From positions 15,779 through 79,778 of IMG/VR virus record IMGVR_UViG_3300000117_000016: DNA of 64,000 nt. One strand, 5' to 3'. This document shows positions 21,689-51,219 of this stretch, one piece after another (within the stretch, counting starts at the first letter, position 1; each line of letters begins with the position of its first letter). The translations under genes were made by a program, and so were the position numbers. This DNA is from a virus. Under the pieces are notes generated by a model. That model did no database searches, was not told where the DNA came from, and saw only the letters and a list, made by a program, of their open reading frames with translations.

Positions 21689-22648
21689 TTATCCTATGGG
21701 TATCTCAGTTTGGATGTTGGGAAAATCTTTTAAAAACTCTTCAGGGTTGTTGAAGTTATCTTCTAATGGTTGTTCTTTAGATTGCTTAATTGTTACGTGA
21801 TCTATTTCTTCTGGTTTTATTGTTATATTTATGCCATTTTGATCATAGATGTCTTGAAGGTACTGCAGTTTATTTTTCTGTGCGTGTAATGCTTCGTAAT
21901 TTATTATGCACTTAGGTCTGTCAAAGTTGTTATATATTTCAGTAATTTTTTCTTGAGCATTTTTTATTTGATTAAATTTACCTAAATATGCTTCTTTATT
22001 CCACGTAATCTTTAGCTTTTTGCATTCTTCTATTCTGTTCATATTTTTTTCGTTAGTATCAACATACCATATATTATTTAGGTTTCCTTTAACTTCGCTA
22101 ATATGCGTCAATAAAGCACTTTTCCTGTGTGGTACTATTAAAGCATTGCAGTGTTTTAGTACTTTGTTTATGTCTATATTATTGTTAAGTTTGTCTGTTT
22201 CTTCTAAAGCTGTTTGACTTAAGAAAATTTTTACTATTGTATTTTTATTCACAGCTTTGTTTAAAAACTTTAAACTTACTGTATACAATTCTTCGTTAGA
22301 TGGTTCGATAAATCTTTCCATCTCTTCAATAAGTTCCTTCATAGGTTTTGAGTGATATTCACGAACTAAGCCTGATAAATTTCTAAGTAAAAACTGCTGA
22401 TGTGCATCAAGCCATCCTGCATACTTATATATATAATTGCTTTTGTGTGCAGCCATTAATTGTACAATTTTTGTTTTTATGTACATATTCCAGAAAATAT
22501 GATTGAAAAATTCACCCAAACAAAACCATTCTTTAAAATTTGAACGAATTGTTGATAGTATGAAATTTGTACCAACTCTACCACAAGCCGACAGCATAAC
22601 AGCGTTTGTTTTGTTACAGCTTGGAGAAGTGTTCTTTGATTTCATCAA
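21689..22648 (-). CDS. Sulfotransferase-like protein (Stf0-type)
   Basis: GRVGTNFI (5'-PSB loop), LGEFF, HRKS...HIS, INYEAL, KQ. Confidence 0.65.
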   Translation of the reverse strand: MMKSKNTSPSCNKTNAVMLSACGRVGTNFILSTIRSNFKEWFCLGEFFNHIFWNMYIKTKIVQLMAAHKSNYIYKYAGWLDAHQQFLLRNLSGLVREYHSKPMKELIEEMERFIEPSNEELYTVSLKFLNKAVNKNTIVKIFLSQTALEETDKLNNNIDINKVLKHCNALIVPHRKSALLTHISEVKGNLNNIWYVDTNEKNMNRIEECKKLKITWNKEAYLGKFNQIKNAQEKITEIYNNFDRPKCIINYEALHAQKNKLQYLQDIYDQNGINITIKPEEIDHVTIKQSKEQPLEDNFNNPEEFLKDFPNIQTEIPIG

Positions 22649-23465
22649 ATTTACCTTTATTGTTTAGTTTATATAGTCCGTTGCTATCAATTTCCAGATC
22701 TTTAATATTAAAATCATGAGTAAGTATTTTTTCTCTAGAATTATATCCTCTATATTTGTAGTCTCCGTGATATAAATGCTCTATGACACCTTTGCAATAG
22801 CCAACATCTACGCCAGAAGATTTGTCTAGATTTTGATAATAATTTAAAAAATCTTGTATCAAATTATTAGGCATTGCGAATATCTTGTAATTAACAATAT
22901 CACCTAACCAAGCATATAATTGCAAGCCGTCATTACTACCCATAATATGTTTATCATAAAAGCCATTTGGTAAAAGTGATCTGCGACATCCCCAGGATAG
23001 TCCAACAGCCAAGCTGCGTCCTATAGGTTCATTATGATGTATGTAAGAGTGTAGTAGCTTGGCATAAGAAAAGCAGTTGAGATTATGATTAAAATGATTG
23101 TCTAGTTCTACCACTCTTTCAAACGGTTGACCAAAACACTTCTCATCTAATAATTTATCTAATTCTGTAAGCCAATCATCATTATGAAATACTACATCTG
23201 TATCTACCCATACAATCTTATCTACATTGTCAGACAAAGTTTCTAAAGCTATATTGAAACATCTTTCCTTTTGCCATAAAAAATTTTCAGGCTTAGCTAC
23301 AATTTGTATAGCGTCATCTATAAAAAATTGAGATGCGTCTGTAGCTAATTCTACTGTAATTAGATCATGAGCAAAGTTTTTTCTAAATTTCTCATAGTTA
23401 GATTTTCTAACAGGATTATTATTATAATTAAAATATGAGCATATTGCTTTAATCATTGAAGTCAT
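22614..23465 (-). CDS. GT-A glycosyltransferase-like protein (paralog 1 of 3)
   Basis: LWQKERCFN, WVDTD (DxD), HLYHG; homologous to 34446..35291 and 35288..36103. Confidence 0.7.
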   Translation of the reverse strand: MTSMIKAICSYFNYNNNPVRKSNYEKFRKNFAHDLITVELATDASQFFIDDAIQIVAKPENFLWQKERCFNIALETLSDNVDKIVWVDTDVVFHNDDWLTELDKLLDEKCFGQPFERVVELDNHFNHNLNCFSYAKLLHSYIHHNEPIGRSLAVGLSWGCRRSLLPNGFYDKHIMGSNDGLQLYAWLGDIVNYKIFAMPNNLIQDFLNYYQNLDKSSGVDVGYCKGVIEHLYHGDYKYRGYNSREKILTHDFNIKDLEIDSNGLYKLNNKGKFDEIKEHFSKL

Positions 23466-23877
23466 GTTCCTGTATACGTTTTTCTATATCAAGATTAAAT
23501 GCAACCGACTTAACTAAGTTAATATTGAAGTCTCCATCTTCGTTAGAATCACACACATGCGGATTGTATGTAGTAGTCCTAATAAAATTTACGATCATTT
23601 TTAGTAGCCTTTCTTTTTGTTGATGTGCATAGGCTATCTCTTCAAAAAGGAAAGCTAAAAATTTGTGTATGTCTGCTGTTTTGCATGGTAGCATACCCAT
23701 ATTTATACCATAGCAGACCCAATGAAAATACAGTCTTTCTTTTTCTGTCACGCTATGTTCTTTACAATAAGGTTGATAAAATTCAGAAACCTCAGGGTAT
23801 TGTTCTGAGTATGTAACTTCATCAAAAAATTGATTACATTTATTCTTTTTATAAAAATCTTTTAGTGTTATTTCCAT
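23449..23877 (-). CDS. Hypothetical protein with FD..Y...YP...H...YG motif of the type seen in GT-associated repeats
   Basis: FDEVTYSEQYPEV...FHWVCYG. Confidence 0.5.
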   Translation of the reverse strand: MEITLKDFYKKNKCNQFFDEVTYSEQYPEVSEFYQPYCKEHSVTEKERLYFHWVCYGINMGMLPCKTADIHKFLAFLFEEIAYAHQQKERLLKMIVNFIRTTTYNPHVCDSNEDGDFNINLVKSVAFNLDIEKRIQEHDFND

Positions 23878-23880
23878 AAT

Positions 23881-24519
23881 TTAATTTTTGTAAGCAAAAA
23901 ACCTATGAAAAGGACAGTCCATAATACCAATAATTCTATCCATCAATAACTGTTCAGTAATATCTACCAAAACATTATTATCACATACATCGACAACGCC
24001 TTGATATACGTCTTGGTTTCCAGGTATGTCATCAATAACAACTACGGTGTCAGTATGAGCGAATTTTTTACAATCATGGACATCTTGGATTAAATCGTCT
24101 GTACTATGACCCCCATCAATATGAATTAAATCATATTTTTGTGTCGGAATATGTTTTTTTATAGTGGTATGACTATTGCCAGCAGTAAATATGCAGTCAT
24201 AATTCTGTGCTAAATAATCGCAACTACCCTTGGTATAAGGATGGCTAAATAAATCAAAACCTAGTACTTTTAATTTTGGATTAGCGTACAAACACAAGCC
24301 TACAGAATGTCCTCCATTAATTCCTACTTGAACTAAACTTTCAGAAACTCTAGACAAATTGTATAAGTTGTTTCTTAGTGAATACTTCTCTGTATCTAAA
24401 ACAAAATGGCTGGCATGATTGTATAGGCAATTTCCCTCAAAGTCAGGCAAATATGGTTTTACAGATTTATTTAAGTTTTTGACTATTTCAGAATCAAGAA
24501 ATTCGTTGTCATTAAGCAT
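23881..24519 (-). CDS. Class I SAM-dependent methyltransferase (Methyltransf_24-like)
   Basis: QVGINGGHS, GFD, GNS, YDLIHIDGGH, VVIDD. Confidence 0.85.
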   Translation of the reverse strand: MLNDNEFLDSEIVKNLNKSVKPYLPDFEGNCLYNHASHFVLDTEKYSLRNNLYNLSRVSESLVQVGINGGHSVGLCLYANPKLKVLGFDLFSHPYTKGSCDYLAQNYDCIFTAGNSHTTIKKHIPTQKYDLIHIDGGHSTDDLIQDVHDCKKFAHTDTVVVIDDIPGNQDVYQGVVDVCDNNVLVDITEQLLMDRIIGIMDCPFHRFFAYKN

Positions 24520-25267
24520 TAATTATTTCCTTTGCCATTTCTAATCTATATTGATTAATTTGATTGTGTGTGTAACCAAGCCTCTCTGCTCTTTTCCACG
24601 ATGTGCCGTGACCTAAATGATATACTTCCATATTAGGAAAACCTGTTTCTTCCGGATCGTAGTGCCTGCAAATCTTGGTATGATGTCTTGAAATATTAAA
24701 TACTTTCATTATATCAGAAAATGTGTTTTGATGATATACAGCTTCAAGGAAGTCTTGATCCCCAAAACATCTTCTATTTCTTTCTTCATAATGTTTTTTG
24801 CACCAATTAACAATATTATTTTTTTGTTTGATTAAGAATAAAATATATTTTTCCCAACCATGACTGTCTCCAGAGGCAAAGCATGAACAACATTCGTCTC
24901 TCCAATGTACTTTACTACTTATCTTGTGATCAAATCTAAAGCTTTTATTTATTACATCATAATCAGATATAAAAGAAGGCTCTTGTATTGTGTGGAAAGC
25001 AGCTATTTCTCTTTGTGTAGCCAACCAATATCTATGAACTGGATTTTTTTGTTTTAGTCCTGCACCTCCCCTAACTTCTATATGTACTTCTTGCACTAAG
25101 TCCATATATTGATTAAATAGTGATGATTTTTTGGCATCATCAATAGACAAAATGATAGGATCAAAACCTTGCTTTTTCCAGCTCTCTTCCCACACACCTA
25201 GCAAGCTCTCATGCATTTCTTGATCTGGATCATTTAGATTTTCATAATATGTATATATTTTTGTCAT
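24512..25267 (-). CDS. Putative GT-A glycosyltransferase
   Basis: WEESWKKQGF, ISDYDVIN (DxD), GDQDFL. Confidence 0.6.
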   Translation of the reverse strand: MTKIYTYYENLNDPDQEMHESLLGVWEESWKKQGFDPIILSIDDAKKSSLFNQYMDLVQEVHIEVRGGAGLKQKNPVHRYWLATQREIAAFHTIQEPSFISDYDVINKSFRFDHKISSKVHWRDECCSCFASGDSHGWEKYILFLIKQKNNIVNWCKKHYEERNRRCFGDQDFLEAVYHQNTFSDIMKVFNISRHHTKICRHYDPEETGFPNMEVYHLGHGTSWKRAERLGYTHNQINQYRLEMAKEIINA

Positions 25268-26457
25268 AGCGTATTGATTTCACAAGGGACATCAAAAATT
25301 TTACTAATCCAATAAACAAAACCAGACCCCCAATCATACACACTGTAAGATATATTGCTTTTGCTTTCAGAAAGAATCTTTACATCTAAAGCTGTGTGTA
25401 ATAATTTTTCATCTTCTATGTCTTGATTTTGAAAATCAGTAAAAGTAAGGGTAGAAGGAGCATAGGATGTATGAGTGCTCTTTTCGTGTATAATGTGTAT
25501 CTTTTTGCTCTTGTTGACCTTCTTAAAGTATGCTTTTAAATCATTGCAGTCCGACATAATGATTAGATTTTTACACTTACTATCTTTCAAATATTTTTTT
25601 GCCATTTTGTAGTATTCACTATAGTCATGATCAAAAGATTTGTAATTAGGATTTTCTTTAATATACTCTGGCAAATCAGATATTTGCTCGTCTAAGTGAG
25701 ATACGCTTTTTCTGTCGCCTAGCCTAAAGTGTAAAACATGATAGTCTTTTATATTAAGTGTTTGATAAAGATTTTCTACATCTTTATGAAAGTAAATATG
25801 AAATTTAAAATATCTTTTGCATTTATCTGTTAGGTCGTAGTTTTGTAAGAAACATCTAGCATTTCTGTCATAGTGCGGCACAATTAGAACATCATGATAA
25901 AATGAAGATATTGCTAGATCTTTTGAACTACTTATGGTCTCGTTAAGTATCTTTTTCATGTGCATAGACCAATTTTGGGAACCTCTATTGGATTCTGCTT
26001 CTACTTCTAAATCTATGGGCTCTGATTGCGTTTCAGGGGCTGTGGTTAAAATAAACTTACCGATAGGGTGCTGTTTAAAATCAAGGGTTACAGAGGTTTG
26101 TGTGTGATGACACAAGTTTTCAAATAGATGGACAGAACCTCTGAGAAAATCCCCTATACCACCACTAAATCTCTTGGTGTAGCAATTAGTTACACTTTTT
26201 AAATTTGATACATTTACAGGATATATACTAGACAGCTCAAAATGAGATAAGTCATAATCATCTCTATATAGTTGTAAAATAAAATTATACAAGATATCCA
26301 TATGGTGTCTTTGTGTAATCACCAATATGGATTTTACCAACCATTCATCTAACTGAGACTTATCTTTGCAATAGTCATACTGTAAAAAGTATTCAGCAAA
26401 AGATACTAGGTCTCCAGTATTAACAAAGTCATGAAGTATCTCTTTAGGTTCGGTCAT
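25264..26457 (-). CDS. Fucosyltransferase-like glycosyltransferase (GT11/GT23/O-FucT fold)
   Basis: GGIGDFLRG, LHFRLGD, IMSDC, LDVKILS, SGF. Confidence 0.7.
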   Translation of the reverse strand: MTEPKEILHDFVNTGDLVSFAEYFLQYDYCKDKSQLDEWLVKSILVITQRHHMDILYNFILQLYRDDYDLSHFELSSIYPVNVSNLKSVTNCYTKRFSGGIGDFLRGSVHLFENLCHHTQTSVTLDFKQHPIGKFILTTAPETQSEPIDLEVEAESNRGSQNWSMHMKKILNETISSSKDLAISSFYHDVLIVPHYDRNARCFLQNYDLTDKCKRYFKFHIYFHKDVENLYQTLNIKDYHVLHFRLGDRKSVSHLDEQISDLPEYIKENPNYKSFDHDYSEYYKMAKKYLKDSKCKNLIIMSDCNDLKAYFKKVNKSKKIHIIHEKSTHTSYAPSTLTFTDFQNQDIEDEKLLHTALDVKILSESKSNISYSVYDWGSGFVYWISKIFDVPCEINTL

Positions 26458-27418
26458 TTTGTTCCTGTATCCATTTATATGTCTTCTCTAATCCATTATA
26501 AAGTGTCATAGAGGGCTGCCAACCTAATTCTTTTTGTAAAAGTCTATTATCAGAATTTCTACCATTAACGCCTACAGGACCGTCTATATTTTTATACTTA
26601 ACGTTTTTACCAGAAAGTTTGATAATCATTTCTGCAAACTGATTGATGCTCACCATTTCTTCACTGCCAATGTTAACTGGCCCAGTAAAGTTTGATCGTG
26701 TTAATCTTAATGTACCTTCTATACATTCATCAATATATAGGAATGATCGTGTTTGATTACCTGTTCCCCAAATTTCAATAGTACCACCTTCTTCTGCCCT
26801 AATAACTTTTCTACACAATGCAGCAGGAGCTTTCTCTCTACCTCCATCCCAAGTGCCTTCTGGACCAAATATATTATGATACCTAGCTATGCTTACGTCT
26901 AATCCATGATTTCTTTGTAATGCTAAATAAAATCTTTCACTAAATAGTTTTTCCCATCCATATTCACTATCTGGTGCGGCTGGATATGCAGAATCTTCGC
27001 TACATTTTGGGTTGTCTGGATCTTCTTGATTATATGCTGGATACATGCAGGCACTACTGCTATAGAATAGTTTACCTATTTTTTTGTTGACAGCTATTGA
27101 GCCTATGTTAAGATTAATTTGTGCAGAATTATGCATGATACCCGCATCGTTCTCTCCAGTGAAAATATATCCTGCTCCACCCATATCTGCTGCTAGTTGA
27201 TAAACTTCGTCAAACACTTCTCCATTAGGTAAAGACATTACTCTTTCAGCATTTCTAAAATTACACAAATCTCCTAATGCAAAATCATCAGCTTCTGTTG
27301 TAGAGAAATCTGGTATCTTTAAATCTGCACCTCTTACCCAATATCCATCTGCCTTTAATCTTTTAACAAGGTGCGACCCTATGAATCCACCGGCTCCACA
27401 CACTAATGCTGTTTTCAT
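26444..27418 (-). CDS. GDP-mannose 3,5-epimerase-like NAD-dependent epimerase
   Basis: GAGGFIG, LAADMGGAGYI, SSACMYP, YGWEK, RYHNIFGP, GGREKAPAALCRK, GRNSDN. Confidence 0.9.
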   Translation of the reverse strand: MKTALVCGAGGFIGSHLVKRLKADGYWVRGADLKIPDFSTTEADDFALGDLCNFRNAERVMSLPNGEVFDEVYQLAADMGGAGYIFTGENDAGIMHNSAQINLNIGSIAVNKKIGKLFYSSSACMYPAYNQEDPDNPKCSEDSAYPAAPDSEYGWEKLFSERFYLALQRNHGLDVSIARYHNIFGPEGTWDGGREKAPAALCRKVIRAEEGGTIEIWGTGNQTRSFLYIDECIEGTLRLTRSNFTGPVNIGSEEMVSINQFAEMIIKLSGKNVKYKNIDGPVGVNGRNSDNRLLQKELGWQPSMTLYNGLEKTYKWIQEQNDRT

Positions 27419-27457
27419 TTTTATTTACTTTCTATAGCTTGTTATATTTTCTGTTAT

Positions 27458-27844
27458 TTAGTTAAAAATATTAATTATTTCAGGCCAGTTATTTTCAAAA
27501 CGAATAGCTTTATCATCAATATACGCCATAGCTCTAGGCTTTTCACTTGTTACATATTTTATATATTTGAGTATTCCGTATTTGTCAAGCCATTCCTCTA
27601 CTAATTCTTTGCCTGTTTTATTATTTACTAAGGGTCTGTCTGGTTTAGCTTTAGCTGTAAATATAACTATATCATAGTGTTTTGACAAAGTTTTTATAGC
27701 TTCAATTGATCCTTCTATCGGATCGTCATATATTGTCCCATCGTGGAAGCCTTTAGAATTTTTGTGTATTACATCATCAAAATCAATAGCTATTTGTTTT
27801 GAATGATCTTCTATTGCAAGCTTCTCGTATTCTTTTTTATTCAT
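27458..27844 (-). CDS. HAD-superfamily phosphatase
   Basis: IDFDDVI, FTA, KP, YIDDKA. Confidence 0.85.
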   Translation of the reverse strand: MNKKEYEKLAIEDHSKQIAIDFDDVIHKNSKGFHDGTIYDDPIEGSIEAIKTLSKHYDIVIFTAKAKPDRPLVNNKTGKELVEEWLDKYGILKYIKYVTSEKPRAMAYIDDKAIRFENNWPEIINIFN

Positions 27845-28496
27845 CTAAATTCCTTATGTCAAAATAAGAATCTTTACTTTTACTAAAACATAAATCTATA
27901 TTATTATAAATTTTGTAAGCGCATTCTTCAGGGGTTGGTAGTTTTGGATACATGTCTTGAAACTTTTTAACGGAAGGCACTTGTTTAAAATCTATTGTCT
28001 TTATATAGTCTTGCATTTTGGTTTTTATAACACCAGGAGCCAAAGATAAAAACTCAATATCTGTACACTCTTGGTTATAACACGAAAGCATTTGCTTAAA
28101 GGCAGCTTTACTAGAACAATACAAAGACCAACCAAAATATGTTTTTATGGCAGCACCTGACGATATGCCTATCACTTTTTTAGCTTTGTTATTTTGTATT
28201 AAGTAATCAATAATAATTTTGTTTGACCATACATTAACATCAAATATTTTTTTATATTCCTTAATGTCTATTTCATTAATTTTTTTAAGATCACCTAACA
28301 TACCAGCATTTAAAAAAACATATTCAAAATGATCGATATTTTTGCACACTGTTTTGACATAGGAACTGACTTGAGACAGGTCACTCAGGTCACAGTCTTT
28401 TCTATTGATAGTGTATACAGAATGGTTGTTTGAATATATTTTATATAGTGATTTTCCGAGTCCGGACGTAGTACCTGTGATAAGTATTTTTTTCAT
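27837..28496 (-). CDS. Short-chain dehydrogenase/reductase
   Basis: TGTTSGLG, LNAG, SSGAA, YCSSK, PGVIKT. Confidence 0.9.
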   Translation of the reverse strand: MKKILITGTTSGLGKSLYKIYSNNHSVYTINRKDCDLSDLSQVSSYVKTVCKNIDHFEYVFLNAGMLGDLKKINEIDIKEYKKIFDVNVWSNKIIIDYLIQNNKAKKVIGISSGAAIKTYFGWSLYCSSKAAFKQMLSCYNQECTDIEFLSLAPGVIKTKMQDYIKTIDFKQVPSVKKFQDMYPKLPTPEECAYKIYNNIDLCFSKSKDSYFDIRNLDE

Positions 28497-29437
28497 ACTT
28501 TAAAAACCTCAGGGTTAAAATTGTCTTTATCATGTCCTGTAATTTGTGAGCATATAGTATCAAATTTGTCTATAGATAAATTCAATTCATTGGCTGTTTT
28601 AGCATAGTTATCTGTTAGTCCGTAGGAAGAAGTGATAAGTTCATGTACTAAAGGTTGGATACTTAATATATTTTTATGTCTAAATATTAAGTCAGATAAT
28701 TTGGATATGTCAGACTTCTGTATTATATGCTCAAGTTTAAGGTTACCAGAACCTTTGCCCATTCCACGCACTGATGTGTCTGTGCTATCTATTTTGTTTT
28801 TTAATAATTCTTTATAGTTTGTAACAGCTAGTCCCATATGATCGTGTAAATGGAATCCCACCTTTTTGCCTCTAGATTTTAATACATCAAATGCTGGCGT
28901 AAATCTTGATAAATCTTTGGTTAAATCTAATGACCCATGAGTATCAGCAAAATATACATAATCAAATGGGAAGTCTATAACTTTGTGGGCTACTTCAATT
29001 GCTTCTTCTTGAGTATAGTTTGACGCATTAAAAACATTAAAGCTAATATTAATTTTACAAAACTCTTTTAGAGCTTTACCAAACGACAGGGCGTTACAGA
29101 TATCTTCTTTTCTAGAACACAATCTGATCATAGATATTTCTGATTGATTTACGCTAGGATATTTTTTAACATCATGGCTACAATAATGATAATCTATCAT
29201 TACGGAAATGTTATTCTTGTTTTGTTTTTGTGATACTTCACAGACCTTGTCGTAGTCTAGATTATAGAAAAAATTTTTACTTTTTGAAGTTTGTCCCCAA
29301 TATCCTAATTCAATTGTTTTTACTTGAGTTAAGCTGCACATCAAATTGTAGTATTCTCTAGCAAATTCTATAGGCCAATCGAAATCTACAGCATGACCAC
29401 CATCTCGTAATGTAACATCTATAATATCAATCACCAT
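28493..29437 (-). CDS. DRE-TIM (HMGL-like) pyruvate aldolase, 4-hydroxy-2-oxovalerate-aldolase-like
   Basis: DVTLRDGG, IELGY, ADTHG, GFHLHDHMGLA, GMGKGSGN. Confidence 0.88.
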   Translation of the reverse strand: MVIDIIDVTLRDGGHAVDFDWPIEFAREYYNLMCSLTQVKTIELGYWGQTSKSKNFFYNLDYDKVCEVSQKQNKNNISVMIDYHYCSHDVKKYPSVNQSEISMIRLCSRKEDICNALSFGKALKEFCKINISFNVFNASNYTQEEAIEVAHKVIDFPFDYVYFADTHGSLDLTKDLSRFTPAFDVLKSRGKKVGFHLHDHMGLAVTNYKELLKNKIDSTDTSVRGMGKGSGNLKLEHIIQKSDISKLSDLIFRHKNILSIQPLVHELITSSYGLTDNYAKTANELNLSIDKFDTICSQITGHDKDNFNPEVFKV

Positions 29438-30065
29438 ACCACCTTCTTGCTAGCTCTAAGTCTTCATGGGTATCTATTTCAATAGACTCTTCAAATGATA
29501 GTGGATAAAAGTATGGGTTAGATCCTGTCCTGTTTTTATGTTCTTTGAATGTTTGTTTGGTAAATATAAAAAAGGCACCATTGCCTAATATTATAGGTTC
29601 TAAGTTCTGCGTTTTTTGAATATGTTTCGGATCAAAATTAATTGGCTTATTTCTAAAATATGCAAATTCCTTATGCTCTGTGCATGCCTGAACAGTGTCA
29701 TAGCCCTCACTTAATTTTTTACTAGCTTCCTTCATTGTAGAAAGCTTTATAAATGGTGATGTTACATGTGGCGTCACAATAATTTCTTTATCATCTACAA
29801 CATGTTCATCTAAAAATCTATCAATCATTAATAATACAGGACTGACACCAAATGTAGCATCTGTTTCCAAAGCAATATGTTCTGGTAATCGCTGATAGGC
29901 ATTTCTGCATGATCTCAGTATTCTTGGGCTATCTGTATCAACAAACACCTCTTCATTTGTAAGTTTGTCTAATAGGTGTAACCACAAAGGCTTGCCTTTT
30001 AAAATTACAAAATTTTTATCTGTAACCCTCTCAGACTTGTCTTTTACAATTACAAAAAACTTCAT
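29427..30065 (-). CDS. Acylneuraminate/ulosonate cytidylyltransferase (NeuA/KdsB family)
   Basis: KSERVTDKN...GKPL, VDTDS, HVTSPF, TQNL, EIDTHEDL. Confidence 0.88.
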   Translation of the reverse strand: MKFFVIVKDKSERVTDKNFVILKGKPLWLHLLDKLTNEEVFVDTDSPRILRSCRNAYQRLPEHIALETDATFGVSPVLLMIDRFLDEHVVDDKEIIVTPHVTSPFIKLSTMKEASKKLSEGYDTVQACTEHKEFAYFRNKPINFDPKHIQKTQNLEPIILGNGAFFIFTKQTFKEHKNRTGSNPYFYPLSFEESIEIDTHEDLELARRWYGD

Positions 30066-30066
30066 A

Positions 30067-30516
30067 TTATTCAGCTATAAAAGTGCAAATGATTTTTCTA
30101 TCTCTAATAGGATCTAGTTCCACAGCAAATATACTTTTCCATTTGCCTAGTATTAATTCACCATTATCAACAGGTACTGTTTGAGATGAGTCAAAAAACA
30201 AATATCTAATATGAGAATGTCCATTAATTCTTTCGTCTGGCGGGGTGTCGTTCCTCAATGATATCATATCATGCAAATATTTAGTATTTTTTTGCACACC
30301 TTCCGGTTGTTTAGCTATTGGTGCATATGCGTCTAAGAAAAATCTAATATCAGCATGGTGCAGAATTTCGTTTTCCGTCATCCAAATAGCTAAGGTGGTA
30401 TGTGGAGAAAATACATGGATAATACCAGACTTATTCCAATCTTTTGCAAATTCTTTGATCTGTGGAGTAAGGTTGGTGAATAATTTATCGGTATTTAAAG
30501 TGATGTATTTCTTCAT
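30067..30516 (-). CDS. yjbQ: YjbQ (UPF0047) family protein
   Basis: HTT....ENE, Y.HD, NGHSHI, LGKWKSIFAVELD..R.R. Confidence 0.88.
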   Translation of the reverse strand: MKKYITLNTDKLFTNLTPQIKEFAKDWNKSGIIHVFSPHTTLAIWMTENEILHHADIRFFLDAYAPIAKQPEGVQKNTKYLHDMISLRNDTPPDERINGHSHIRYLFFDSSQTVPVDNGELILGKWKSIFAVELDPIRDRKIICTFIAE

Positions 30517-31193
30517 AGTATCTTACAATTTTGTAATATTTTTATTGCCTCTTCTGTTGGCTCTAAATCATTTGATAGTCTTGATGGCTGTTGATCCAAC
30601 AGCAAACAAAATGTAGCATCTATGAAGCCTTTGTCGTGTAGCCATCTTATAATATTGATTTCTGAGTTTTTGTCATGGCAAGATTTATTATTTTCTTCAT
30701 TTTGAAATATTTTATCTTGTACATAAAATGATTGTCTAACTTCATTATTTACAGAAAAACCAAACACATATAATTTGTCCTTAGGGAATTTTAGTATATG
30801 ATTACAAATTGCAGCAATACCTGTTCTGGGCTGTTTTTTAAAAAGATAAGGACACTTATTCTCCCGTAAAAAACTATTATAGGGACCAGCACGATCTATA
30901 CTATGTATAATTGTATATTCGTCAATATTAAAATTATCTGTAAAATTTTTAATATATTCTTCTTTATAGACGGTTTTGTAGTCTTTCATTAAAGACGATC
31001 CGCTTTTCTTTCTTTGTACGATATTGGTATATAAATGAGAACACAAAACTATAGAGTCTTTTATAGATCCATTATTTCCAGAAGGAATACCCATATTGCA
31101 TCTAATATTTCTATCAAATATATCAATTAGGCTATTGGCGTTTAAATTATTGTAAGTCTTGTTGCCTAATATTAAAATTGATTGATTGTTCAT
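30513..31193 (-). CDS. GT29 sialyltransferase-like protein
   Basis: L-like motif ILGN...IDIFDRNIRCN...G; S-like motif PRTG...LYVFGF; VS motif HxxxxE (HDKNSE) followed by LH. Confidence 0.72.
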   Translation of the reverse strand: MNNQSILILGNKTYNNLNANSLIDIFDRNIRCNMGIPSGNNGSIKDSIVLCSHLYTNIVQRKKSGSSLMKDYKTVYKEEYIKNFTDNFNIDEYTIIHSIDRAGPYNSFLRENKCPYLFKKQPRTGIAAICNHILKFPKDKLYVFGFSVNNEVRQSFYVQDKIFQNEENNKSCHDKNSEINIIRWLHDKGFIDATFCLLLDQQPSRLSNDLEPTEEAIKILQNCKIL

Positions 31194-31200
31194 AACAATA

Positions 31201-31791
31201 TTATTTTCTTATAAAACTATATATATTTCTACCATTAGAATAAAAGATATCATAATTATGGCTAGTGAAAAAATTGATTAATGCAACATCTCTTTGATTA
31301 TCTCTATTAGTGTTGTAGTCGTGTGTTTCCATGCATATTTGTTGAACACCCAAACAGTCTTTATAAATATCATATTCAGCACCCTCTATGTCTAGCTTAA
31401 TTAATGAAGGTTGATATTTTCTAATTAATCCTTTAAGGGAAATCGTTTTAACTGTATAGGTTTCTGAACCTACGCTTTTCATATCAGGGTTAATACTATC
31501 TGACACATGATTGGGGTTATTGTTTTTATATAAAACTAAATCTTTATCATCTAATGTATAAACAGCCTTATTGATGAAAGTAACATAGTTTAGTTTCTTG
31601 TCCTGATTATATCTCAAGGCTTTTATTGTAGGATCGACAGCAATAACTTTGACATCTCTATACAAATGTAAAAATTCACTAAAGCTATAGTCTTCACCTA
31701 CGCCTAAGTCTAAGATTGTATCATTAGTATTTATAGAGTCTAAATCTACATAATAACCCCCATAGTGATTGCCTGCTCTTAGTATATTCAT
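31201..31791 (-). CDS. FkbM-family methyltransferase
   Basis: LDLGVGED, VDP, LIKLDIEGAE, QICMETH. Confidence 0.88.
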   Translation of the reverse strand: MNILRAGNHYGGYYVDLDSINTNDTILDLGVGEDYSFSEFLHLYRDVKVIAVDPTIKALRYNQDKKLNYVTFINKAVYTLDDKDLVLYKNNNPNHVSDSINPDMKSVGSETYTVKTISLKGLIRKYQPSLIKLDIEGAEYDIYKDCLGVQQICMETHDYNTNRDNQRDVALINFFTSHNYDIFYSNGRNIYSFIRK

Positions 31792-32669
31792 TTAATAGCA
31801 CCTATCTTTGCAACAAATTCTTGCCATTCTCTCTTCCATTTGTCAAACGGTATAGTCTCTTGTAGCCATCCAATTGGATCATACATATCATAATTATTAT
31901 AAATTTTTTCTAATTTTTCTTTGATTAATTTAGTATTGGACCTATCTTTCCAAGAAATAATTTCACCTATTCTTGGGTCATAATCTCCATCAAACAATCC
32001 GGCTTCTGTAGACAAAACCGGAAGTCCACAAGCTATAGCATCCATTACTGCATAAGCATTGCCTTCGTGATAAGAAATACACATGTAAATATTATGATTT
32101 TGATAGCCGGTTTGTTTATTGTGTTGTCCACATTCTAAATTGTTGAATGTAAAATTTAAACATTCTGAACGGATATTATTTATAATTTTAGATCCTTTAG
32201 ACTCCGTTCTCCAATCCCCAACTACAGATCGGCCTTTAGTAACAGCCTTATCAGCTTTTGTCTCTACTCCATGCAGTATAACAGTGTCGTCAGTAACTCC
32301 ATGATGTTCTTTGGCTGCTCTTTCTGTAAATTTAGAAATACCCACAAACCAAGTGTTGGGTCTTTTTCCCATACCTTCTTGTTGTTGAACGAATACATCT
32401 CCGTCCCAAATAACATTCCTCTTTTTGTGTTCGGCAGCCATACCGTGGTGTACTGCGATTACCTTAAGCGGTTGAGGTATTTCGTTAATAAAACTATGAT
32501 CAGTTATTATTAATGTTTCATTTATATTTAGTGTAAACCAAGGAATGTTTGACTGTCTAATTACAGACCGTATACCAGGAAAAGCTTTACGCAGCTCATA
32601 ATCGAATCTAGCGACACCACCGAAAGATCCTGTTTCATAATTGGTGGGGGTATAATGTATAATATTCAT
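31788..32669 (-). CDS. Glycosyltransferase family 4
   Basis: GGVARF, HG, KG, SYHEGNAYAVMDAIACGLPV. Confidence 0.82.
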   Translation of the reverse strand: MNIIHYTPTNYETGSFGGVARFDYELRKAFPGIRSVIRQSNIPWFTLNINETLIITDHSFINEIPQPLKVIAVHHGMAAEHKKRNVIWDGDVFVQQQEGMGKRPNTWFVGISKFTERAAKEHHGVTDDTVILHGVETKADKAVTKGRSVVGDWRTESKGSKIINNIRSECLNFTFNNLECGQHNKQTGYQNHNIYMCISYHEGNAYAVMDAIACGLPVLSTEAGLFDGDYDPRIGEIISWKDRSNTKLIKEKLEKIYNNYDMYDPIGWLQETIPFDKWKREWQEFVAKIGAIK

Positions 32670-33556
32670 TTTAAAAATTTAGATTTGCATAATGTCCTAA
32701 TTTTTTCTTTTACGCTATCGTCCCACAAAAATTCCTTTACCATTTTATTATATGGCTTATAGTTTTTCCAATTTTGTGCATAGTGGTCTGCGTTGCTATG
32801 CTCTCCCCATTCTCCAATATACTGTGCATTCATAGTAAAGGTGGATATTTTAATAAAATTATTTAAGGCTAGAAACCCACTCATAACACTGTCTTGACTA
32901 GTTACTACCTTACTTGGGTCCATGTCGTATTGATCACAGTACTCCAATATTTGTTGATGCGGCCTACCCCTATAGTCATCTGGTAGCATAGCATAGTAAG
33001 CTTCCATAAAAGGAGCCACAACATCATATGCTCTTTTAAAAAACCCATATCCCCAAATATGCTCCATTTGCATAAATTTGTTATTATTTCTCTCTTGCTG
33101 TTTATCCCAATCGTCGTATCTTGTAAGATAGTCACAATACTTAAAAACATCTGTGTGTCTATGAATTTCACCAAAACAACTCACCATACTAATATCTTTA
33201 TCATCCTGGAATTTATCCATTAATAAATTCAACTGTTCTAGATAATAGTCATTTAATACTATGTCGTCTTCTATGAATATAGCAGAATCTGCTCTATCAA
33301 AAATAAATTCTCTTGCTCTTTTTTGATTAAAAGCAACGCCTAAGTTGCATTCACTAGCAAAGACTTTGGATTTAGGAAAATGCTTACTAAAAACATCTAC
33401 ACTGTTTTTTACTTTGGGCTTATCATCCGTTAGTATTCTTGCACCATCTTGAAACAAAAAAACCTCAGCGTCCTTGACTTGAGGCTTTAATGCTTGCAAT
33501 ACTTTATCTAAATAATCTGGACGATTATATGCATATACTATTATTGGTCTTGACAT
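32666..33556 (-). CDS. GT-A glycosyltransferase (GT2/GT13-like)
   Basis: YNRPDYL, FQDG, IFIEDD, WG. Confidence 0.8.
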   Translation of the reverse strand: MSRPIIVYAYNRPDYLDKVLQALKPQVKDAEVFLFQDGARILTDDKPKVKNSVDVFSKHFPKSKVFASECNLGVAFNQKRAREFIFDRADSAIFIEDDIVLNDYYLEQLNLLMDKFQDDKDISMVSCFGEIHRHTDVFKYCDYLTRYDDWDKQQERNNNKFMQMEHIWGYGFFKRAYDVVAPFMEAYYAMLPDDYRGRPHQQILEYCDQYDMDPSKVVTSQDSVMSGFLALNNFIKISTFTMNAQYIGEWGEHSNADHYAQNWKNYKPYNKMVKEFLWDDSVKEKIRTLCKSKFLK

Positions 33557-33581
33557 TATAATCCTAGATACTGTAGTGGAG

Positions 33582-33830
33582 TTAACTCTTGGTTAGTTTA
33601 TTATAAACCAAAAGAGCAACCACGCCACCACCAATTCCCATAAAAATTCCCGCAGGCTCTAACGCACTATAAAACCCTAATAAATAAGATACTGCTCCAC
33701 CGCAATACGATCCAGCAACACCAAGGGCTACAGTTTGGAAAAACCCTAATTTTTCTTCGCCGGGGACTATACTCTTAGCAATAGACCCTACAAAAATACC
33801 GTATACACACCATATTAATAAACTAAACAT
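33582..33830 (-). CDS. GlsB/YeaQ/YmgE (transglycosylase-associated) membrane protein
   Basis: G...G.IAK.IVPG...LGVAGSYCGG; three TM segments. Confidence 0.85.
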   Translation of the reverse strand: MFSLLIWCVYGIFVGSIAKSIVPGEEKLGFFQTVALGVAGSYCGGAVSYLLGFYSALEPAGIFMGIGGGVVALLVYNKLTKS

Positions 33831-34209
33831 TACTTACCTCTATTAAAGAATGAACTTGTTCGTGACTCAAATCGCTTGCAGCGTCCAATATTTTCTCACA
33901 CAAAACACTTCCATGTTTTTTATATTCTTCCCTTGGCATATTTTGTCGTAATATTTTTTTAAGACGCATTTTGGTATACCATCCACGCCTTACACTTAAT
34001 GTTTTAATATGACTAGCATAAGCAGTACATTTTTGTTCAGTACTAGTCAGCATTTTGAGTTCTGTTTTATTACAATCTTGTATAACTCTGATTAAAGTAA
34101 GAAATACCCCAATCAGCATAATAACAGCTATGACACTACCAAAGTTAGCCTTCGGATCTATGTCAGAATCTATAGCAATTTTTTCTGCAATTGTTTCTAA
34201 TTCATTCAT
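33823..34209 (-). CDS. Hypothetical membrane-anchored protein
   Basis: One hydrophobic segment (VIAVIMLIGVFLTLI). Confidence 0.7.
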   Translation of the reverse strand: MNELETIAEKIAIDSDIDPKANFGSVIAVIMLIGVFLTLIRVIQDCNKTELKMLTSTEQKCTAYASHIKTLSVRRGWYTKMRLKKILRQNMPREEYKKHGSVLCEKILDAASDLSHEQVHSLIEVSNV

Positions 34210-34213
34210 GATA

Positions 34214-34453
34214 TTACTTCGGCCTTATGTTAATATAAAATTTACCATCCCTGGCTCCAGTTTTTAAAATACCATCCGATGATACTTGCACTTTAGCTTC
34301 AACTGGCGGACCTCCACCTATGACTGTAGGAGCATATCCAGCAGTATTAGTTCCAGCAATTGGATTATACCCTGCAGTATTATACACTATATTGTCGTCA
34401 ATATTATTAATAGTCGTTTTTAAAATTTTGTTGAATAGTTCTCTATTACTCAT
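34214..34453 (-). CDS. 79-aa protein with conserved leader and two TAGYxP motifs
   Basis: N-terminus matches 47597..49093 and 49519..51213. Confidence 0.75.
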   Translation of the reverse strand: MSNRELFNKILKTTINNIDDNIVYNTAGYNPIAGTNTAGYAPTVIGGGPPVEAKVQVSSDGILKTGARDGKFYINIRPK

Positions 34454-35291
34454 CGTCTTTTCTGTCTATAAAATATTGAGCTATATCTTGTTTGAATTTT
34501 GGTTTATTGGGCAGTAACTCTATCAGACCTTCCGTAATTTTTATGTCTGTATCTGGGTCATAGTTGTGGTTGTGTAGTATTTCGTTTTTTTCCCAATACT
34601 GTCTGTTGGCAGTATTTCCATGATACAAATGCTCTATACTACCTTTAATACACCCAATTTGGCCGTTGACGTTCTCATTATTTTTGAGGGCCCATAATAG
34701 GTATTTACGCCTCATTCTTGGGGGTAGGATTAATACTTGCTGATGATCCCATAACCCTAGCCAAGCTATTAATTGTAAAGCGTCATTATTCCCTAAAACA
34801 TCACAATCAAACAATCCGTCATCTATTATATTTCTCCTCATTGCCCAACTAAAACCTATGGCTGGCCAATCTTGCTTTTCTTCATTAAGATGATCTTGTG
34901 CAAAGGATATCTTATTGTGTGTAGAATTAGTAGACTTCTCGTATACTTGATCGAAACATTGTGCTACAGGATATTGATTTAAAACTTTATCTATGTCTTT
35001 TAATATGTTGTTATTATTAAAAATAATATCACAATCTACCCAAACAATGATGTCTATATTATTGGGTAGGGTATCTATCAAAACATTTAACAGTCTCTCT
35101 TTTTGCCAAACTATATTAGAGGTTGTTCCTTTTAGCTTTATACTGTCTTCTATAAAAAAATCCTGATCATCAATGGCGAGTTCTGCTGTATAAATTTTGT
35201 GTGGAAAACGTCTACGAAACTCTATATAGTTATTCTTAATCCTATTAGAGTTTGTAAAATTGAAGTACGAAGTTATAAATGCTGTACTCAC
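34446..35291 (-). CDS. GT-A glycosyltransferase-like protein (paralog 2 of 3)
   Basis: WQKERLLN, WVDCD, HLYHG. Confidence 0.7.
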   Translation of the reverse strand: MSTAFITSYFNFTNSNRIKNNYIEFRRRFPHKIYTAELAIDDQDFFIEDSIKLKGTTSNIVWQKERLLNVLIDTLPNNIDIIVWVDCDIIFNNNNILKDIDKVLNQYPVAQCFDQVYEKSTNSTHNKISFAQDHLNEEKQDWPAIGFSWAMRRNIIDDGLFDCDVLGNNDALQLIAWLGLWDHQQVLILPPRMRRKYLLWALKNNENVNGQIGCIKGSIEHLYHGNTANRQYWEKNEILHNHNYDPDTDIKITEGLIELLPNKPKFKQDIAQYFIDRKDDE

Positions 35292-36103
35292 AAAATATCT
35301 TTAATTTCGTTGTGCAATTCTGCCTTATCGCTAGCCCATTGCCATAAACCATTACTACCTAATTCAATATCCTCATTAATATCAAACAGATGTTTGTTTA
35401 ATATATGTGTATAAATTGGGCGTTGACTACTAGTGGTGGTAATTTTAATGTCATTTAAATGATTTAATTTATTTTGCACAACCATAAAGTCATTGATAGC
35501 TTTGGTTAATAGGGGTAGACTAATATCTTGATGGAAATCACGACAAAAACTGTTATTCCAAGCTCCTTGCCAAGTAACAATTTGATGTAATTCATTATTG
35601 CCTACAATAGAAAAATCATACAAGCCCTTAGGTAAAACATCTCTTCTTACAGCCCAAGCCAAATCATACCTACCTATATTAGATATGACAGGATTATTCT
35701 TTAGACTATATTCCTCACCTGCCTGTTTGATTTTTGCTAGATACCCCAACTGATCATTAACATGGCTAAAAAGTTGGCATATAGGATATTCGTCTAATGC
35801 AACTGTTGCCTTTTTGTACCATGACAAATCTTCAAAAATAATATTGGGATCTAACCAAGCTATTTGGTCAACAGAAGACTTTAGTGATTCTATACCTATG
35901 TTAATTAATCTTTGTGGTTGCCAAAGCATATTAGATTCGTCGGCAGATATCCTAATAGAATCATCAATCCAAAAATATTGATCGGCAAAAGCAACCTCTA
36001 CTACAGTCAGAGGAGCGTTAAAGTTATTTTTAAACTCTTGGAAATCCTGTCTAACTTTGTCAGAATTATTAGGATTAAAATAGTAGGTTATACATCGTAG
36101 CAT
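35288..36103 (-). CDS. GT-A glycosyltransferase-like protein (paralog 3 of 3, degenerate)
   Basis: LWQPQRLIN, WLDPN in place of DxD, no HLYHG. Confidence 0.62.
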   Translation of the reverse strand: MLRCITYYFNPNNSDKVRQDFQEFKNNFNAPLTVVEVAFADQYFWIDDSIRISADESNMLWQPQRLINIGIESLKSSVDQIAWLDPNIIFEDLSWYKKATVALDEYPICQLFSHVNDQLGYLAKIKQAGEEYSLKNNPVISNIGRYDLAWAVRRDVLPKGLYDFSIVGNNELHQIVTWQGAWNNSFCRDFHQDISLPLLTKAINDFMVVQNKLNHLNDIKITTTSSQRPIYTHILNKHLFDINEDIELGSNGLWQWASDKAELHNEIKDIL

Positions 36104-39471: not shown

Positions 39472-40083
39472 CTATGTCTGTATGAAATCCCATCTAGCCA
39501 TATCTATCGCATAATATTCTTGAATTTGATCAATTTGAGATTTAGTTAATACTGGTTTTTCTGCTGTTTTTGATGGGTTGATTCTTTTTAACGGAAAGTC
39601 TAAATCCAATAATTCTGCTGCTTTTTCTAGCTGATCATGCATTCTAAAATAATGTAGATTTTTAGCATGGAACCTCTCCTGAATTAAAAAGTGTATATTT
39701 TTATATATTGGCGTGCAAAAACGGTGATACATTATTCTTTTGTTGGTGTGTTTTGCTATTTTAAGCACTTTGTCTGTTTCGTTGATCAGGTCTTCTATGA
39801 TTTCTTCCACTGTAACTATTTGTAGTAATTCTAAAAAAGCTACGGATGATTTAAATTTTTCTACGGGATCACGAAATATTTGTATTACCGGCCTGTCAGG
39901 ATGGAACCTTTTGGGCACTTTGTTATGGTACGCTAGTTGATCTGTAGCTAGTCTTTGGGGATTAATCTTCTTCAGAAATTCTGGGTAATATCTTTTGAGT
40001 ATTGCATAAGCAAAGCTATTGCTGGCACACTTAGGATTAAAAGCAAGCAGCCAGCTTTCGTTACATATAAAGTATTTACTCAT
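39472..40083 (-). CDS. Sulfotransferase family 2-like protein
   Basis: NPKCASNS (5'-PSB), FRDPVEKFKS (3'-PB), HF..Q, YY..D. Confidence 0.8.
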   Translation of the reverse strand: MSKYFICNESWLLAFNPKCASNSFAYAILKRYYPEFLKKINPQRLATDQLAYHNKVPKRFHPDRPVIQIFRDPVEKFKSSVAFLELLQIVTVEEIIEDLINETDKVLKIAKHTNKRIMYHRFCTPIYKNIHFLIQERFHAKNLHYFRMHDQLEKAAELLDLDFPLKRINPSKTAEKPVLTKSQIDQIQEYYAIDMARWDFIQT

Positions 40084-47596: not shown

Positions 47597-49093
47597 TTAA
47601 GCTGTAAAAGCAGGAGTTATTTTAATTGTAAGATTTTCAATAGCTATAGGTGTAACCATAGCAGAGAATACATAAGGAAACTCTAAAAGTGGGTATGAAG
47701 CCCATTCTCCACCATCTAAGGGTTCGGCAGATGTGTAAGTGATACCTATAGATTTACTATAGTATTTGAATCCATGTTTAACCTGATCGCTGTCTGTAGT
47801 TATAGGCATATTGAACTTATTAGGTGGTGCAATTCTTGTAGCTACAACTATTGTTTGATTATCAGTAGCCCTTTCTACTCTAACAATCAAATTTCCAGTA
47901 ACACGAATTTGAGGTTGGGCTGGCCCCCAAGTTAATTCTGATCTAGATGGATGTACAAGCAACTCTTTGTGAGCAACCGCTCTGTGGTCACTACTAAATA
48001 ATGTTCTGTGAACCAGAATACTCCATGTTTGGTCCAGCCTAGATAGCGGCAGCCAATTTACTTGTAATATAGAATTTGGTGTGCCTAATCCTGTGCAAGT
48101 ATACCCATCAAAAAAATCGTTATCCGCTAATGGAGAGTCTTTGTAATAAAATGTGTTGCCTCTATTTGTTTTGTACATGTTAGGATTTTGGCTAAAATAT
48201 GAATTTTCTGGAAAAGACTTAGTCTGTTTTTTGTAGAAAGGATCTATATCATTTAATGCACCAAGTCCAGCAACACACCTTCCTTTTTCTAAATTTCTAA
48301 TAAAAGCAGGAGGAAACTTTTTTATCAAACCAGGGCTATCATAAGAATATGTGCCTGCCTTAATCCAACCGTTCCACATTTTGTTAGCTGCACCTGTACC
48401 TGTTATTCCGCCATCAATGATTTGGTAGAAATCTGTAGTTAAACTTATAGGGTTTGTATTTATCGCGCCTGTAGGTGGTGGGTCAGGAGGTACTTTGGGT
48501 GGTGGAACAAAAGTGTCGGTAGGAGGATCTGCTTGAGGCGGAGGACCCGGCGGTTTGTTTGGAGGAAGACTAGGATCTGGTGCTTGCGGTGGTACTGGTT
48601 TAAATTGTGGAGGGCCTGGGTTTTGTGGAGGTTTAGGGTTTCTAGGTATCGTAGGTGTCGGGATTCTGGGTGTAGGTGGTACATGTGGTGGTTGTGGCAG
48701 AGGAAAGTCTGGGAAATCTTCATCAAAATTATTTTGTATTCCTGTGGGAACAGGACTTGGGAACTCAAATACTCCTCCGCAACCCAACTTTATAACTTCA
48801 ATGGTTGGGACTGTTGGTGTCCAATTTGTAGGAAGAGTGCCAGTTGGGAACCCTAGGGTCACGACGGGGTCAAGTTCTGAAAAAAAACAATTTATTACTC
48901 CTGGTTCCTGGAGTTTTTTTCGACATTCATCGATATCAGAAGGAGTCTGTGGCGCATATGCCGCAGTTTTATATTTTTCATACAACGCCCTTCGTTCACT
49001 TTCAGAAAGAGGCAAACCTTGAAAACTTAACGACATCGCAGAGAACGTATGCTCTGAGTTCAGTATTTTATTGAATAGTTTTTTATTAGTCAT
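47597..49093 (-). CDS. Proline-rich protein, paralog A
   Basis: ~100-aa Pro/Thr-rich tract; C-terminal domain homologous to 49519..51213. Confidence 0.8.
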   Translation of the reverse strand: MTNKKLFNKILNSEHTFSAMSLSFQGLPLSESERRALYEKYKTAAYAPQTPSDIDECRKKLQEPGVINCFFSELDPVVTLGFPTGTLPTNWTPTVPTIEVIKLGCGGVFEFPSPVPTGIQNNFDEDFPDFPLPQPPHVPPTPRIPTPTIPRNPKPPQNPGPPQFKPVPPQAPDPSLPPNKPPGPPPQADPPTDTFVPPPKVPPDPPPTGAINTNPISLTTDFYQIIDGGITGTGAANKMWNGWIKAGTYSYDSPGLIKKFPPAFIRNLEKGRCVAGLGALNDIDPFYKKQTKSFPENSYFSQNPNMYKTNRGNTFYYKDSPLADNDFFDGYTCTGLGTPNSILQVNWLPLSRLDQTWSILVHRTLFSSDHRAVAHKELLVHPSRSELTWGPAQPQIRVTGNLIVRVERATDNQTIVVATRIAPPNKFNMPITTDSDQVKHGFKYYSKSIGITYTSAEPLDGGEWASYPLLEFPYVFSAMVTPIAIENLTIKITPAFTA

Positions 49094-51213: not shown

Positions 51214-51219
51214 GATATT

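Follow-up and report, generated by a model that had tools for sequence, protein, structure and literature searches.

The DNA analysed here, a stretch of 64,000 nucleotides referred to as the window, corresponds to positions 15779-79778 of an IMG/VR viral contig 79.8 kb in length (IMGVR_UViG_3300000117_000016), for which CheckV estimated a completeness of 58%. The source is an uncultured, probably lytic, marine tailed phage of ~135 kb. The whole window is coded on the minus strand, and the tightly coupled genes between positions 21689 and 36103 form the glycan island that is the subject of this study. The island is located between a membrane/peptidase cassette and the genes for dCMP deaminase and ribonucleotide reductase (RNR), more than 20 kb from the structural module. 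Its open reading frames (ORFs), named below by their lower coordinate, were assigned as follows:

21689..22648, minus strand: probable sulfotransferase-fold protein of the 3'-phosphoadenosine 5'-phosphosulfate (PAPS) type, 319 aa (Atlas features and motifs)
22614..23465, minus strand: GT-A paralog 1 of a dark glycosyltransferase family, DTD motif (paralog alignment; family model)
23449..23877, minus strand: 142-aa protein without matches (40% identical homolog in synteny in L117)
23881..24519, minus strand: S-adenosylmethionine (SAM) methyltransferase (Methyltransf_24, Pfam E 7e-9, above cut-off)
24512..25267, minus strand: possible GT-A enzyme (GT8/Nucleotid_trans-like), a lead only (nearest named Atlas clusters 0.94, few shared features)
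25264..26457, minus strand: fucosyltransferase-superfamily GT-B enzyme (catalytic part at approximately residues 84-397, extra N-terminal helical domain)
26444..27418, minus strand: GDP-mannose 3,5-epimerase (GME; 2c59 match, catalytic residues, cyanophage homologs)
27458..27844, minus strand: HAD-IIIA-like phosphatase, opening the variable cassette (phrog_1238 E 1e-13; HAD-IIIA match weak)
27837..28496, minus strand: short-chain dehydrogenase/reductase (SDR; adh_short E 2e-21; syntenic in marine bacteria)
28493..29437, minus strand: DRE-TIM (HMGL-like) pyruvate-aldolase-type enzyme (PF00682 E 2e-16)
29427..30065, minus strand: cytidylyltransferase of the cytidine monophosphate (CMP)-ulosonate type (CTP_transf_3, nearest PseF; synteny)
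30067..30516, minus strand: YjbQ/UPF0047 protein, a fixed module member (PF01894 E 2e-23)
30513..31193, minus strand: GT29-like CMP-sugar transferase (PF00777 E 0.01)
31201..31791, minus strand: FkbM-family methyltransferase (TIGR01444 47.5 bits, above cut-off; PF05050)
31788..32669, minus strand: GT4-like glycosyltransferase, sub-threshold (PF00534 E 2e-4; PHROG glycosyltransferase E 2e-6)
32666..33556, minus strand: GT2-like glycosyltransferase, sub-threshold (PF00535 E 2e-4; conserved flank)
33582..34209, minus strand: two small membrane proteins, constant across the lineage (one GlsB/YeaQ-like with 2 transmembrane segments, one with 1)
34214..34453, minus strand: 79-aa ORF, candidate acceptor, absent from the ORF listing (shared N-terminal leader, then NTAGY-type repeats)
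34446..35291, minus strand: GT-A paralog 2 of the dark family, DCD motif (protein used for the structure model)
35288..36103, minus strand: GT-A paralog 3, its metal motif degenerate (DPN replaces DxD)

Seven glycosyltransferases of the island were supported and an eighth, 24512, the protein of which gave no Pfam match, was kept as a lead, in agreement with the approximately eight glycosyltransferase-like genes of a preliminary description of this DNA. The two methyltransferases listed there (23881 and 31201) and the GME-like gene overlapping a fucosyltransferase-fold gene were likewise upheld, the latter overlap being 14 nt. No transmembrane segment was found in any island enzyme. We are highly confident that the island is a real cytoplasmic glycan-building system. 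Its characterisation as a eukaryote- or alga-like toolkit was not retained, as it concerned family names only, and marine phages and bacteria have abundant members of these families as well. An algal origin or mimicry was rejected as unsupported.

Three uncultured relatives (G001, G002 and G003) were 91-98% identical to the phage and collinear with it. In all three, the segment 27419-32665, running from the start of the GME gene to the stop of the GT2-like gene, was replaced, with breaks exactly at gene boundaries and flanks that were 92-98% identical (97% for the GT2-like gene 32666 in G001 and G003). Three distinct sugar-tailoring cassettes were thus found in the same slot (window 27419-32665; L008:7164-12785; L009:7208-11756). 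That of the window consists of a CMP-sugar cassette between the GME and GT2-like genes (27458-31193; phosphatase, SDR, aldolase, cytidylyltransferase, YjbQ and GT29-like genes), the FkbM methyltransferase and then the GT4-like gene completing the segment. The cassette of G001 and G002 encodes a UDP-glucose/GDP-mannose dehydrogenase, a class I/II aminotransferase and proteins of unknown function, and that of G003 (cassette C) a class III aminotransferase, a SAM methyltransferase, a radical-SAM/SPASM enzyme and a relative of the GT29-like protein with 29% identity.

Across the lineage, the slot ranged from one GT-A gene up to 14.4 kb, and was bounded by the two small membrane proteins on one side and dCMP deaminase on the other. 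Members at a greater distance (83-90% identity in RNR) had between a single GT-A gene and several kb of other combinations. These combinations include a fucosyltransferase-like gene, GME, or the 24512-21689 block. The island is an expandable plasticity hotspot, and its only constant is one GT-A gene. In G001, an extra ORF of 213 aa (L008:15434-16075) was also present between the homologs of GT-A paralogs 34446 and 35288.

The three GT-A proteins (22614, 34446 and 35288) are mutual paralogs with 34-38% identity. No Pfam domain or name was obtained for this family, and sequence and profile searches of the PDB returned nothing meaningful. The structure model of 34446 (predicted local distance difference test score, pLDDT, 94.1) presented a GT-A fold with 233 GT-A matches; TarP, the wall teichoic acid glycosyltransferase encoded by a prophage, is among the top ones. 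The family had 217 viral-contig matches and a structural twin in the giant virus Yasminevirus (template-modelling (TM) score 0.89). It was found in none of 151 Pelagibacteraceae genomes and in one of 151 genomes from the family of a Prochlorococcus single-amplified genome, samples which do not prove absence. From these comparisons, the constant GT-A family appears almost virus-restricted. Separately, a 308-aa protein encoded at 36554-37480 was among the most conserved of the lineage (75-89% identity), and in 21 of 72 distant viral loci it was found together with the GT-A family.

Within the CMP-sugar cassette, the nearest model to the aldolase 28493 was 4-hydroxy-2-oxovalerate aldolase; more than 485 marine homologs were found, and DVTLRDGG and HxH are invariant motifs. 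The whole YjbQ-cytidylyltransferase-aldolase-SDR unit keeps strict synteny in four bacterial groups (SAR11, Cytophagales, SAR116 and marine Gammaproteobacteria); identity is 35-70% for the unit and 55-70% for the YjbQ homologs. The phage therefore carries a conserved bacterial module. To our knowledge, this cytidylyltransferase family activates 2-keto-3-deoxy acids only, so that the product is most likely a CMP-ulosonic acid, which the gene content suggests would be made without a phosphoenolpyruvate (PEP)-dependent synthase. A literature search on such an aldolase plus cytidylyltransferase route found no paper.

The match of 30513 to PF00777 scored 15.7 bits and was below the gathering cut-off of 23. 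In its family, 9 of the 42 members matched PF00777 below threshold (best E 7e-5) and no other family recurred. The residues H173 and E178 (H-x4-E) are invariant in the 42 sequences, with the spacing of sialyl motif VS of GT29. A PDB profile search for 30513 was empty. These sequence features give moderate support to a GT29 (sialyltransferase-like) relationship. The GT29-like, YjbQ, cytidylyltransferase, aldolase and SDR genes were also observed, at 47-69% identity to those of the phage, on a 9.4-kb contig labelled as a Promethearchaeota metagenome-assembled genome (L011; JABXKB010000183.1), which is probably a mis-binned phage or bacterial contig and not archaeal DNA.

The protein encoded at 26444-27418 matched the plant (Arabidopsis) GME structure 2c59 with an E-value of 2.7e-88, compared with approximately 1e-26 for the next SDR class and 5e-26 for UDP-glucuronate decarboxylase. 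The N-terminal GxxGxxG, the catalytic Cys, the Tyr/Lys pair and a second Lys were all aligned and conserved, the Cys and the second Lys being the acid/base residues reported for 2c59. Homologs with 59-64% identity were present in 37 cyanophage records. By sequence, this is a genuine GDP-mannose 3,5-epimerase, with GDP-L-galactose or GDP-L-gulose as its predicted product.

For the protein of the overlapping gene 25264, no Pfam or NCBIfam match was obtained, the 30 homologs were all without domain or name, and PDB sequence and profile searches gave nothing meaningful. The GDP-binding-type motif HxRxGD (H243, R245, G247 and D248) is invariant in the 30 family sequences. The AlphaFold2 model had a pLDDT of 93.6, and its top 35 Foldseek matches were all fucosyltransferases. 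VIA-align Z scores were 12.5 for AtFUT1, 12.2 for NodZ, 10.7 for FUT8 and 10.4 for POFUT2, and ran from 12.5 to 9 across the top 43 rows (fucosyltransferases), with unrelated GT-B enzymes at 8.8 or below. The modelled protein is fucosyltransferase-superfamily-like, and no named glycosyltransferase family was assigned to it.

The sulfotransferase assignment of 21689 was based on Atlas language-model features (0.97 with Sulfotransfer_3/Stf0 clusters), on predicted-structure neighbours in sulfotransferase-annotated clusters (TM score 0.57-0.67) and on family invariants, namely the P-loop residues G23, R24, G26 and N28 (G-R-x-G-T/S-N) and R175...S184, the spacing of which is near canonical and not identical to it. 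No Pfam or hidden Markov model match was found, and PDB sequence and profile searches with the family returned nothing meaningful. A sulfotransferase is the probable identity of this protein. A second candidate was located outside the island:

39472..40083, minus strand: possible second sulfotransferase, weak (Sulfotransfer_3, 13 bits against a cut-off of 27)

This match was the sole Sulfotransfer_3 signal genome-wide (genome-wise E 0.004); PF03567 gave nothing for this protein, nor did PDB searches give anything meaningful. No adenosine 5'-phosphosulfate (APS) kinase is encoded by the phage, which is thus without its own PAPS supply. The sulfation of the glycocalyx proposed in the preliminary description depends on one probable enzyme and one weak one. 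In the vicinity of 39472, a small Ser/Thr-rich protein is encoded at 40497-41021 (a 30-aa window of its G001 homolog is 50% Ser/Thr).

Only three ORFs of the genome have a common N-terminal leader, namely the 79-aa ORF of the island and the Pro-rich proteins at 47597 and 49519:

47597..51213, minus strand: two Pro-rich proteins (498 and 564 aa), candidate acceptors, accessory (N-terminal leader in common; a small partner gene for each)

The 79-aa ORF fills an apparent gap (34209-34446), and is conserved and translationally coupled. Its NTAGY-type repeat is present in 2-3 copies in the window and G003 and in 4 copies in G001. Only in the sub-lineage that has the large island were the Pro-rich modules (47597-51618) observed; G001 is without the 47597/49106 module, and L105 and L106 are without both, the homologs of 51619 and 46910 being adjacent. 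Neither the leader ORF nor either Pro-rich protein had a Pfam match, and the same held for the giant structural proteins. The best explanation of the island is an accessory glycan locus at a plasticity hotspot, the most likely acceptor of which is a phage-encoded protein, a reading to which we give a tentative preference and somewhat less than even confidence.

Several observations weigh against a phage protein as acceptor. The leader ORF and the Pro-rich proteins were missing in distant relatives that keep the GT-A gene, and the leader proteins are therefore not a universal acceptor. The probable capsid protein has no Ser/Thr-rich acceptor-like tail, and most structural proteins are without recognised identity. 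The island is neither in nor beside the structural module, its neighbours being genes of nucleotide metabolism and of the membrane/peptidase type. Bacteria are the source of the CMP-sugar module and presumably use it for glycans of the cell surface. Sulfation, on moderate evidence, is probable and not secure. The earlier proposal that soluble enzymes build glycans on phage proteins was maintained as regards solubility, but the virion as acceptor was not borne out. O-antigen glycosyltransferases are typically soluble and free of transmembrane segments, so that the lack of such helices in the island enzymes is compatible with action on host lipid-linked precursors. Similar islands in cyanophages have been read as host-surface modification (PMC9602691, PMC12801897).

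Remodelling of the host envelope is accordingly the strongest alternative, and is doubtful while retaining appreciable weight. The soluble enzymes would modify undecaprenyl-linked lipopolysaccharide (LPS), capsule or S-layer precursors of the host at the cytoplasmic face, the host would provide the initiating transferase, flippase and ligase, and the altered surface would block superinfection or the sticking of progeny to debris. Besides being the standard reading of the comparable cyanophage islands (PMC9602691, PMC12801897), one of which, in S-SSM7, adjoins its GME, this possibility is favoured by the strict bacterial synteny of the CMP-sugar module, by the location of the island beside early/middle-type rather than structural genes, by the soluble nature typical of O-antigen glycosyltransferases and by the presence of TarP among the top fold matches of the GT-A model.

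The genome-wide negatives point the other way. These were established with the near-complete relative G001 (123.6 kb, 89% complete). No ORF with at least 4 transmembrane segments was present in the window or in G001, Bac_transf was not found in either (controls positive), and no flippase, polymerase or initiating transferase was detected in this 89%-complete relative, which extends to most of a genome the absence of flippase, polymerase, initiating transferase and multi-transmembrane glycosyltransferase noted in the preliminary description. A tyrosine integrase was not found in the window or the same relative. As export/polymerisation machinery, integrase and Gtr-type genes are all lacking, the island is not a classical serotype-conversion cassette, a view that had also been expressed earlier. 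With neither an integrase nor any part of a lipid-linked pathway across 89% of a genome, a constant GT-A family nearly absent from the sampled marine bacterial genomes, little time for a lytic phage to renew the surface of its host, and a leader-sharing candidate acceptor gene inside the island itself, host-envelope remodelling was placed behind a phage-encoded acceptor.

Another acceptor is improbable, whether a lipid, a secreted small molecule or a pilin, flagellin or S-layer protein of the host. None of the tests identified an acceptor, the two small membrane proteins are constant neighbours, and the radical-SAM/SPASM enzyme of the G003 cassette is of a type often tied to peptide modification, but pairs of radical-SAM dehydrogenase and aminotransferase also tailor sugars, and nothing specific points to any of these acceptors. 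Hypermodification of DNA, in which the glycosyltransferases would glycosylate modified phage bases against restriction, is very improbable: phage glycosyltransferases can place diverse glycans on DNA (Pyle et al. 2024, in so far as it is cited in PMC12619734) and the island adjoins dCMP deaminase and RNR, but the ThyA-type pyrimidine hydroxymethylase (PF00303) was absent in four records (controls positive), the presence of ThyX and dCMP deaminase indicates the ordinary thymidylate route, and the set of eight glycosyltransferases, with its GDP-L-sugar, CMP-sugar, methyl and sulfate tailoring, goes far beyond known DNA glycans.

If a phage-encoded protein is the acceptor, a mechanism can be proposed from the chemistry of the families. 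In the cytoplasm of the infected cell, the swappable cassette would provide a CMP-activated 3-deoxy-2-ulosonic acid, similar to sialic acid or 3-deoxy-D-manno-octulosonate (Kdo): the pyruvate-type aldolase, SDR, YjbQ and phosphatase would build the ulosonic acid, the cytidylyltransferase would activate it and the GT29-like enzyme would transfer it. The virus-restricted GT-A paralogs, together with the GT4-like and GT2-like enzymes, might add more sugars, and the chain would be tailored by the two methyltransferases and probably also by the PAPS-dependent sulfotransferase. Candidate acceptors would be the 79-aa repeat protein and both of the Pro-rich proteins with the same leader. Exchange of the cassette between strains could then alter the terminal glycan chemistry in a serotype-like manner. 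In its most specific form, this proposal describes a phage 'serotype locus' seeded by the virus-restricted GT-A gene, in which the leader-marked proteins, Pro-rich stalk proteins among them, would receive in the cytoplasm a methylated, sulfated glycan of L-galactose/L-gulose and aldolase-derived ulosonic acid, and exchange would alter the particle surface; so complete a scheme is rather unlikely.

Additional sugar-related genes were present elsewhere in the window:

2201..4896, minus strand: two more GT4-type genes (3262 above cut-off and bearing a Zn-ribbon insert; 2201 weak)
52030..55081, minus strand: GT4 gene (above cut-off), IMPDH/GMP-reductase-family enzyme and CAP59-like glycosyltransferase at 54131 (below cut-off)

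Further GT4 genes and a CAP59-like glycosyltransferase had been described outside the island; the GT4 genes 52030 and 3262 were retained, whereas 54131 did not reach the cut-off, and likewise for the two sulfotransferases first named, 21689 was retained as probable and 39472 only as weak. The IMPDH/GMP-reductase-family gene, lying between the GT4 and CAP59-like genes at 52030-55081, may be tied to guanine-nucleotide supply for GDP-sugars. A 558-aa Cys-rich protein (ORF 41642-43318) falls in 41539-43424, one of only three places where DNA similarity between G000 and G001 was lost, and may be a fast-evolving host-interaction protein. At 56797-58474, a subtilase adjoins a trypsin-like protease with an N-terminal hydrophobic segment, in the neighbourhood of ThyX (58800-59438).

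The replication genes present include RNR, a split DnaE-type polymerase, DnaB, primase and UvsX, along with ThyX and dCMP deaminase. The terminase and very large structural proteins are encoded on the opposite strand, upstream of the window; the terminase alone was recognised when PHROGs were applied to the structural module. Megablast of 25 kb against cultured phages gave no DNA-level match. A marine setting is indicated by the GME relatives, all from marine cyanophages, and by the aldolase relatives, which include Tara Oceans records; the nearest cellular homologs were in SAR11, SAR116, Cytophagales and marine Gammaproteobacteria. The host signals conflict, in that the gene pool of cyanophages is indicated by GME, and SAR11 and Cytophagales by the CMP module; no tRNA genes were found for host prediction. 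A scan for sigma-70 promoters and terminators was at chance level, and the GGTGTA motif was not enriched (29 found against 21 ± 4.6 expected), with none placed before the island genes. These scans were uninformative, and the timing of expression is therefore not inferable from sequence signals.

In marine phages, large blocks of genes are given over to sugar chemistry, the targets of which have never been demonstrated. The locus offers a tractable case, with a core of one GT-A gene, natural cassette variants in near-identical genomes and leader-sharing candidate acceptors, and with two testable enzyme pairs, GME with the fucosyltransferase-fold enzyme and the aldolase route with the GT29-like enzyme. 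If the glycans are on phage proteins, the particle surface would vary in a serotype-like way, which would matter for host recognition, for grazing and for the stickiness of particles in the ocean. If the host carries them, lytic phages would use a toolkit lacking export machinery to rewrite cell surfaces.

Among known systems, the canonical nonulosonic and Kdo pathways resemble the CMP-sugar cassette in three components: a HAD phosphatase, a sialyltransferase-like transferase and a CTP_transf_3 cytidylyltransferase (that of the cassette being nearest PseF). They differ in their PEP-dependent synthase (NeuB/PseI/KdsA; with NeuA/PseF/KdsB), in place of which a DRE-TIM aldolase, an SDR and YjbQ are found here. 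Serotype-converting prophage cassettes (Gtr, Oac and Wzy-type) share with the island the phage-borne, glycan-modifying genes and the strain-level variation; however, GtrA/GtrB-type proteins, polytopic proteins and an integrase are absent here and the island is far more complex. Giant viruses (chloroviruses and mimiviruses) encode their own nucleotide-sugar pathways, soluble glycosyltransferases and sugar methyltransferases, as does the island in kind, and the dark GT-A family has its twin in one of them (Yasminevirus). The present virus, in contrast, is a tailed phage of a bacterium.

Virion glycosylation in phages has been established for mycobacteriophages (Freeman et al. 2023, Cell Host Microbe, as far as cited in PMC12619734 and PMC12801897). 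The mycobacteriophage systems reportedly also use phage-encoded soluble glycosyltransferases in the cytoplasm, without lipid carriers, and their presence varies among related phages; one to few glycosyltransferases are encoded by the structural genes and modify the C-terminal tails of capsid and tail-tube proteins. The island described here is much larger and distant from the structural genes, and no such tails were seen.

The closest systems are the cell-wall/LPS islands of marine T4-like cyanophages (S-SSM7, S-SCSM1, S-SCSM2R, P-TIM68 and S-SM2), the GME proteins of which were 59-64% identical to that of the phage. In these islands, epimerases, methyltransferases and UDP-glucose dehydrogenase cluster with GME, as do many glycosyltransferases, fucosyltransferases among them. 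The cyanophage islands are already annotated and read as host cell-wall modification; that of S-SCSM2R has 13 glycosyltransferases and KdsA/KdsB (PMC9602691, PMC12801897). Here, an aldolase-based CMP-sugar route replaces KdsA/KdsB, and the dark GT-A paralogs, the sulfotransferase-fold gene and the strain-level cassette exchange are additional. The backbone belongs to a different, largely unannotatable lineage, with its split DnaE-type polymerase and the terminase alone recognised among the structural genes tested. Comparable marine cyanophage glycan islands are therefore already known, and the present island differs from them in its backbone, unnamed glycosyltransferase families, sulfotransferase-fold gene, aldolase CMP route, cassette exchange and leader-sharing candidate acceptors. 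What is new is the swap of the segment, the range of the slot from 1 GT-A gene to ~14 kb, the apparently virus-restricted GT-A family and the leader-sharing 79-aa ORF.

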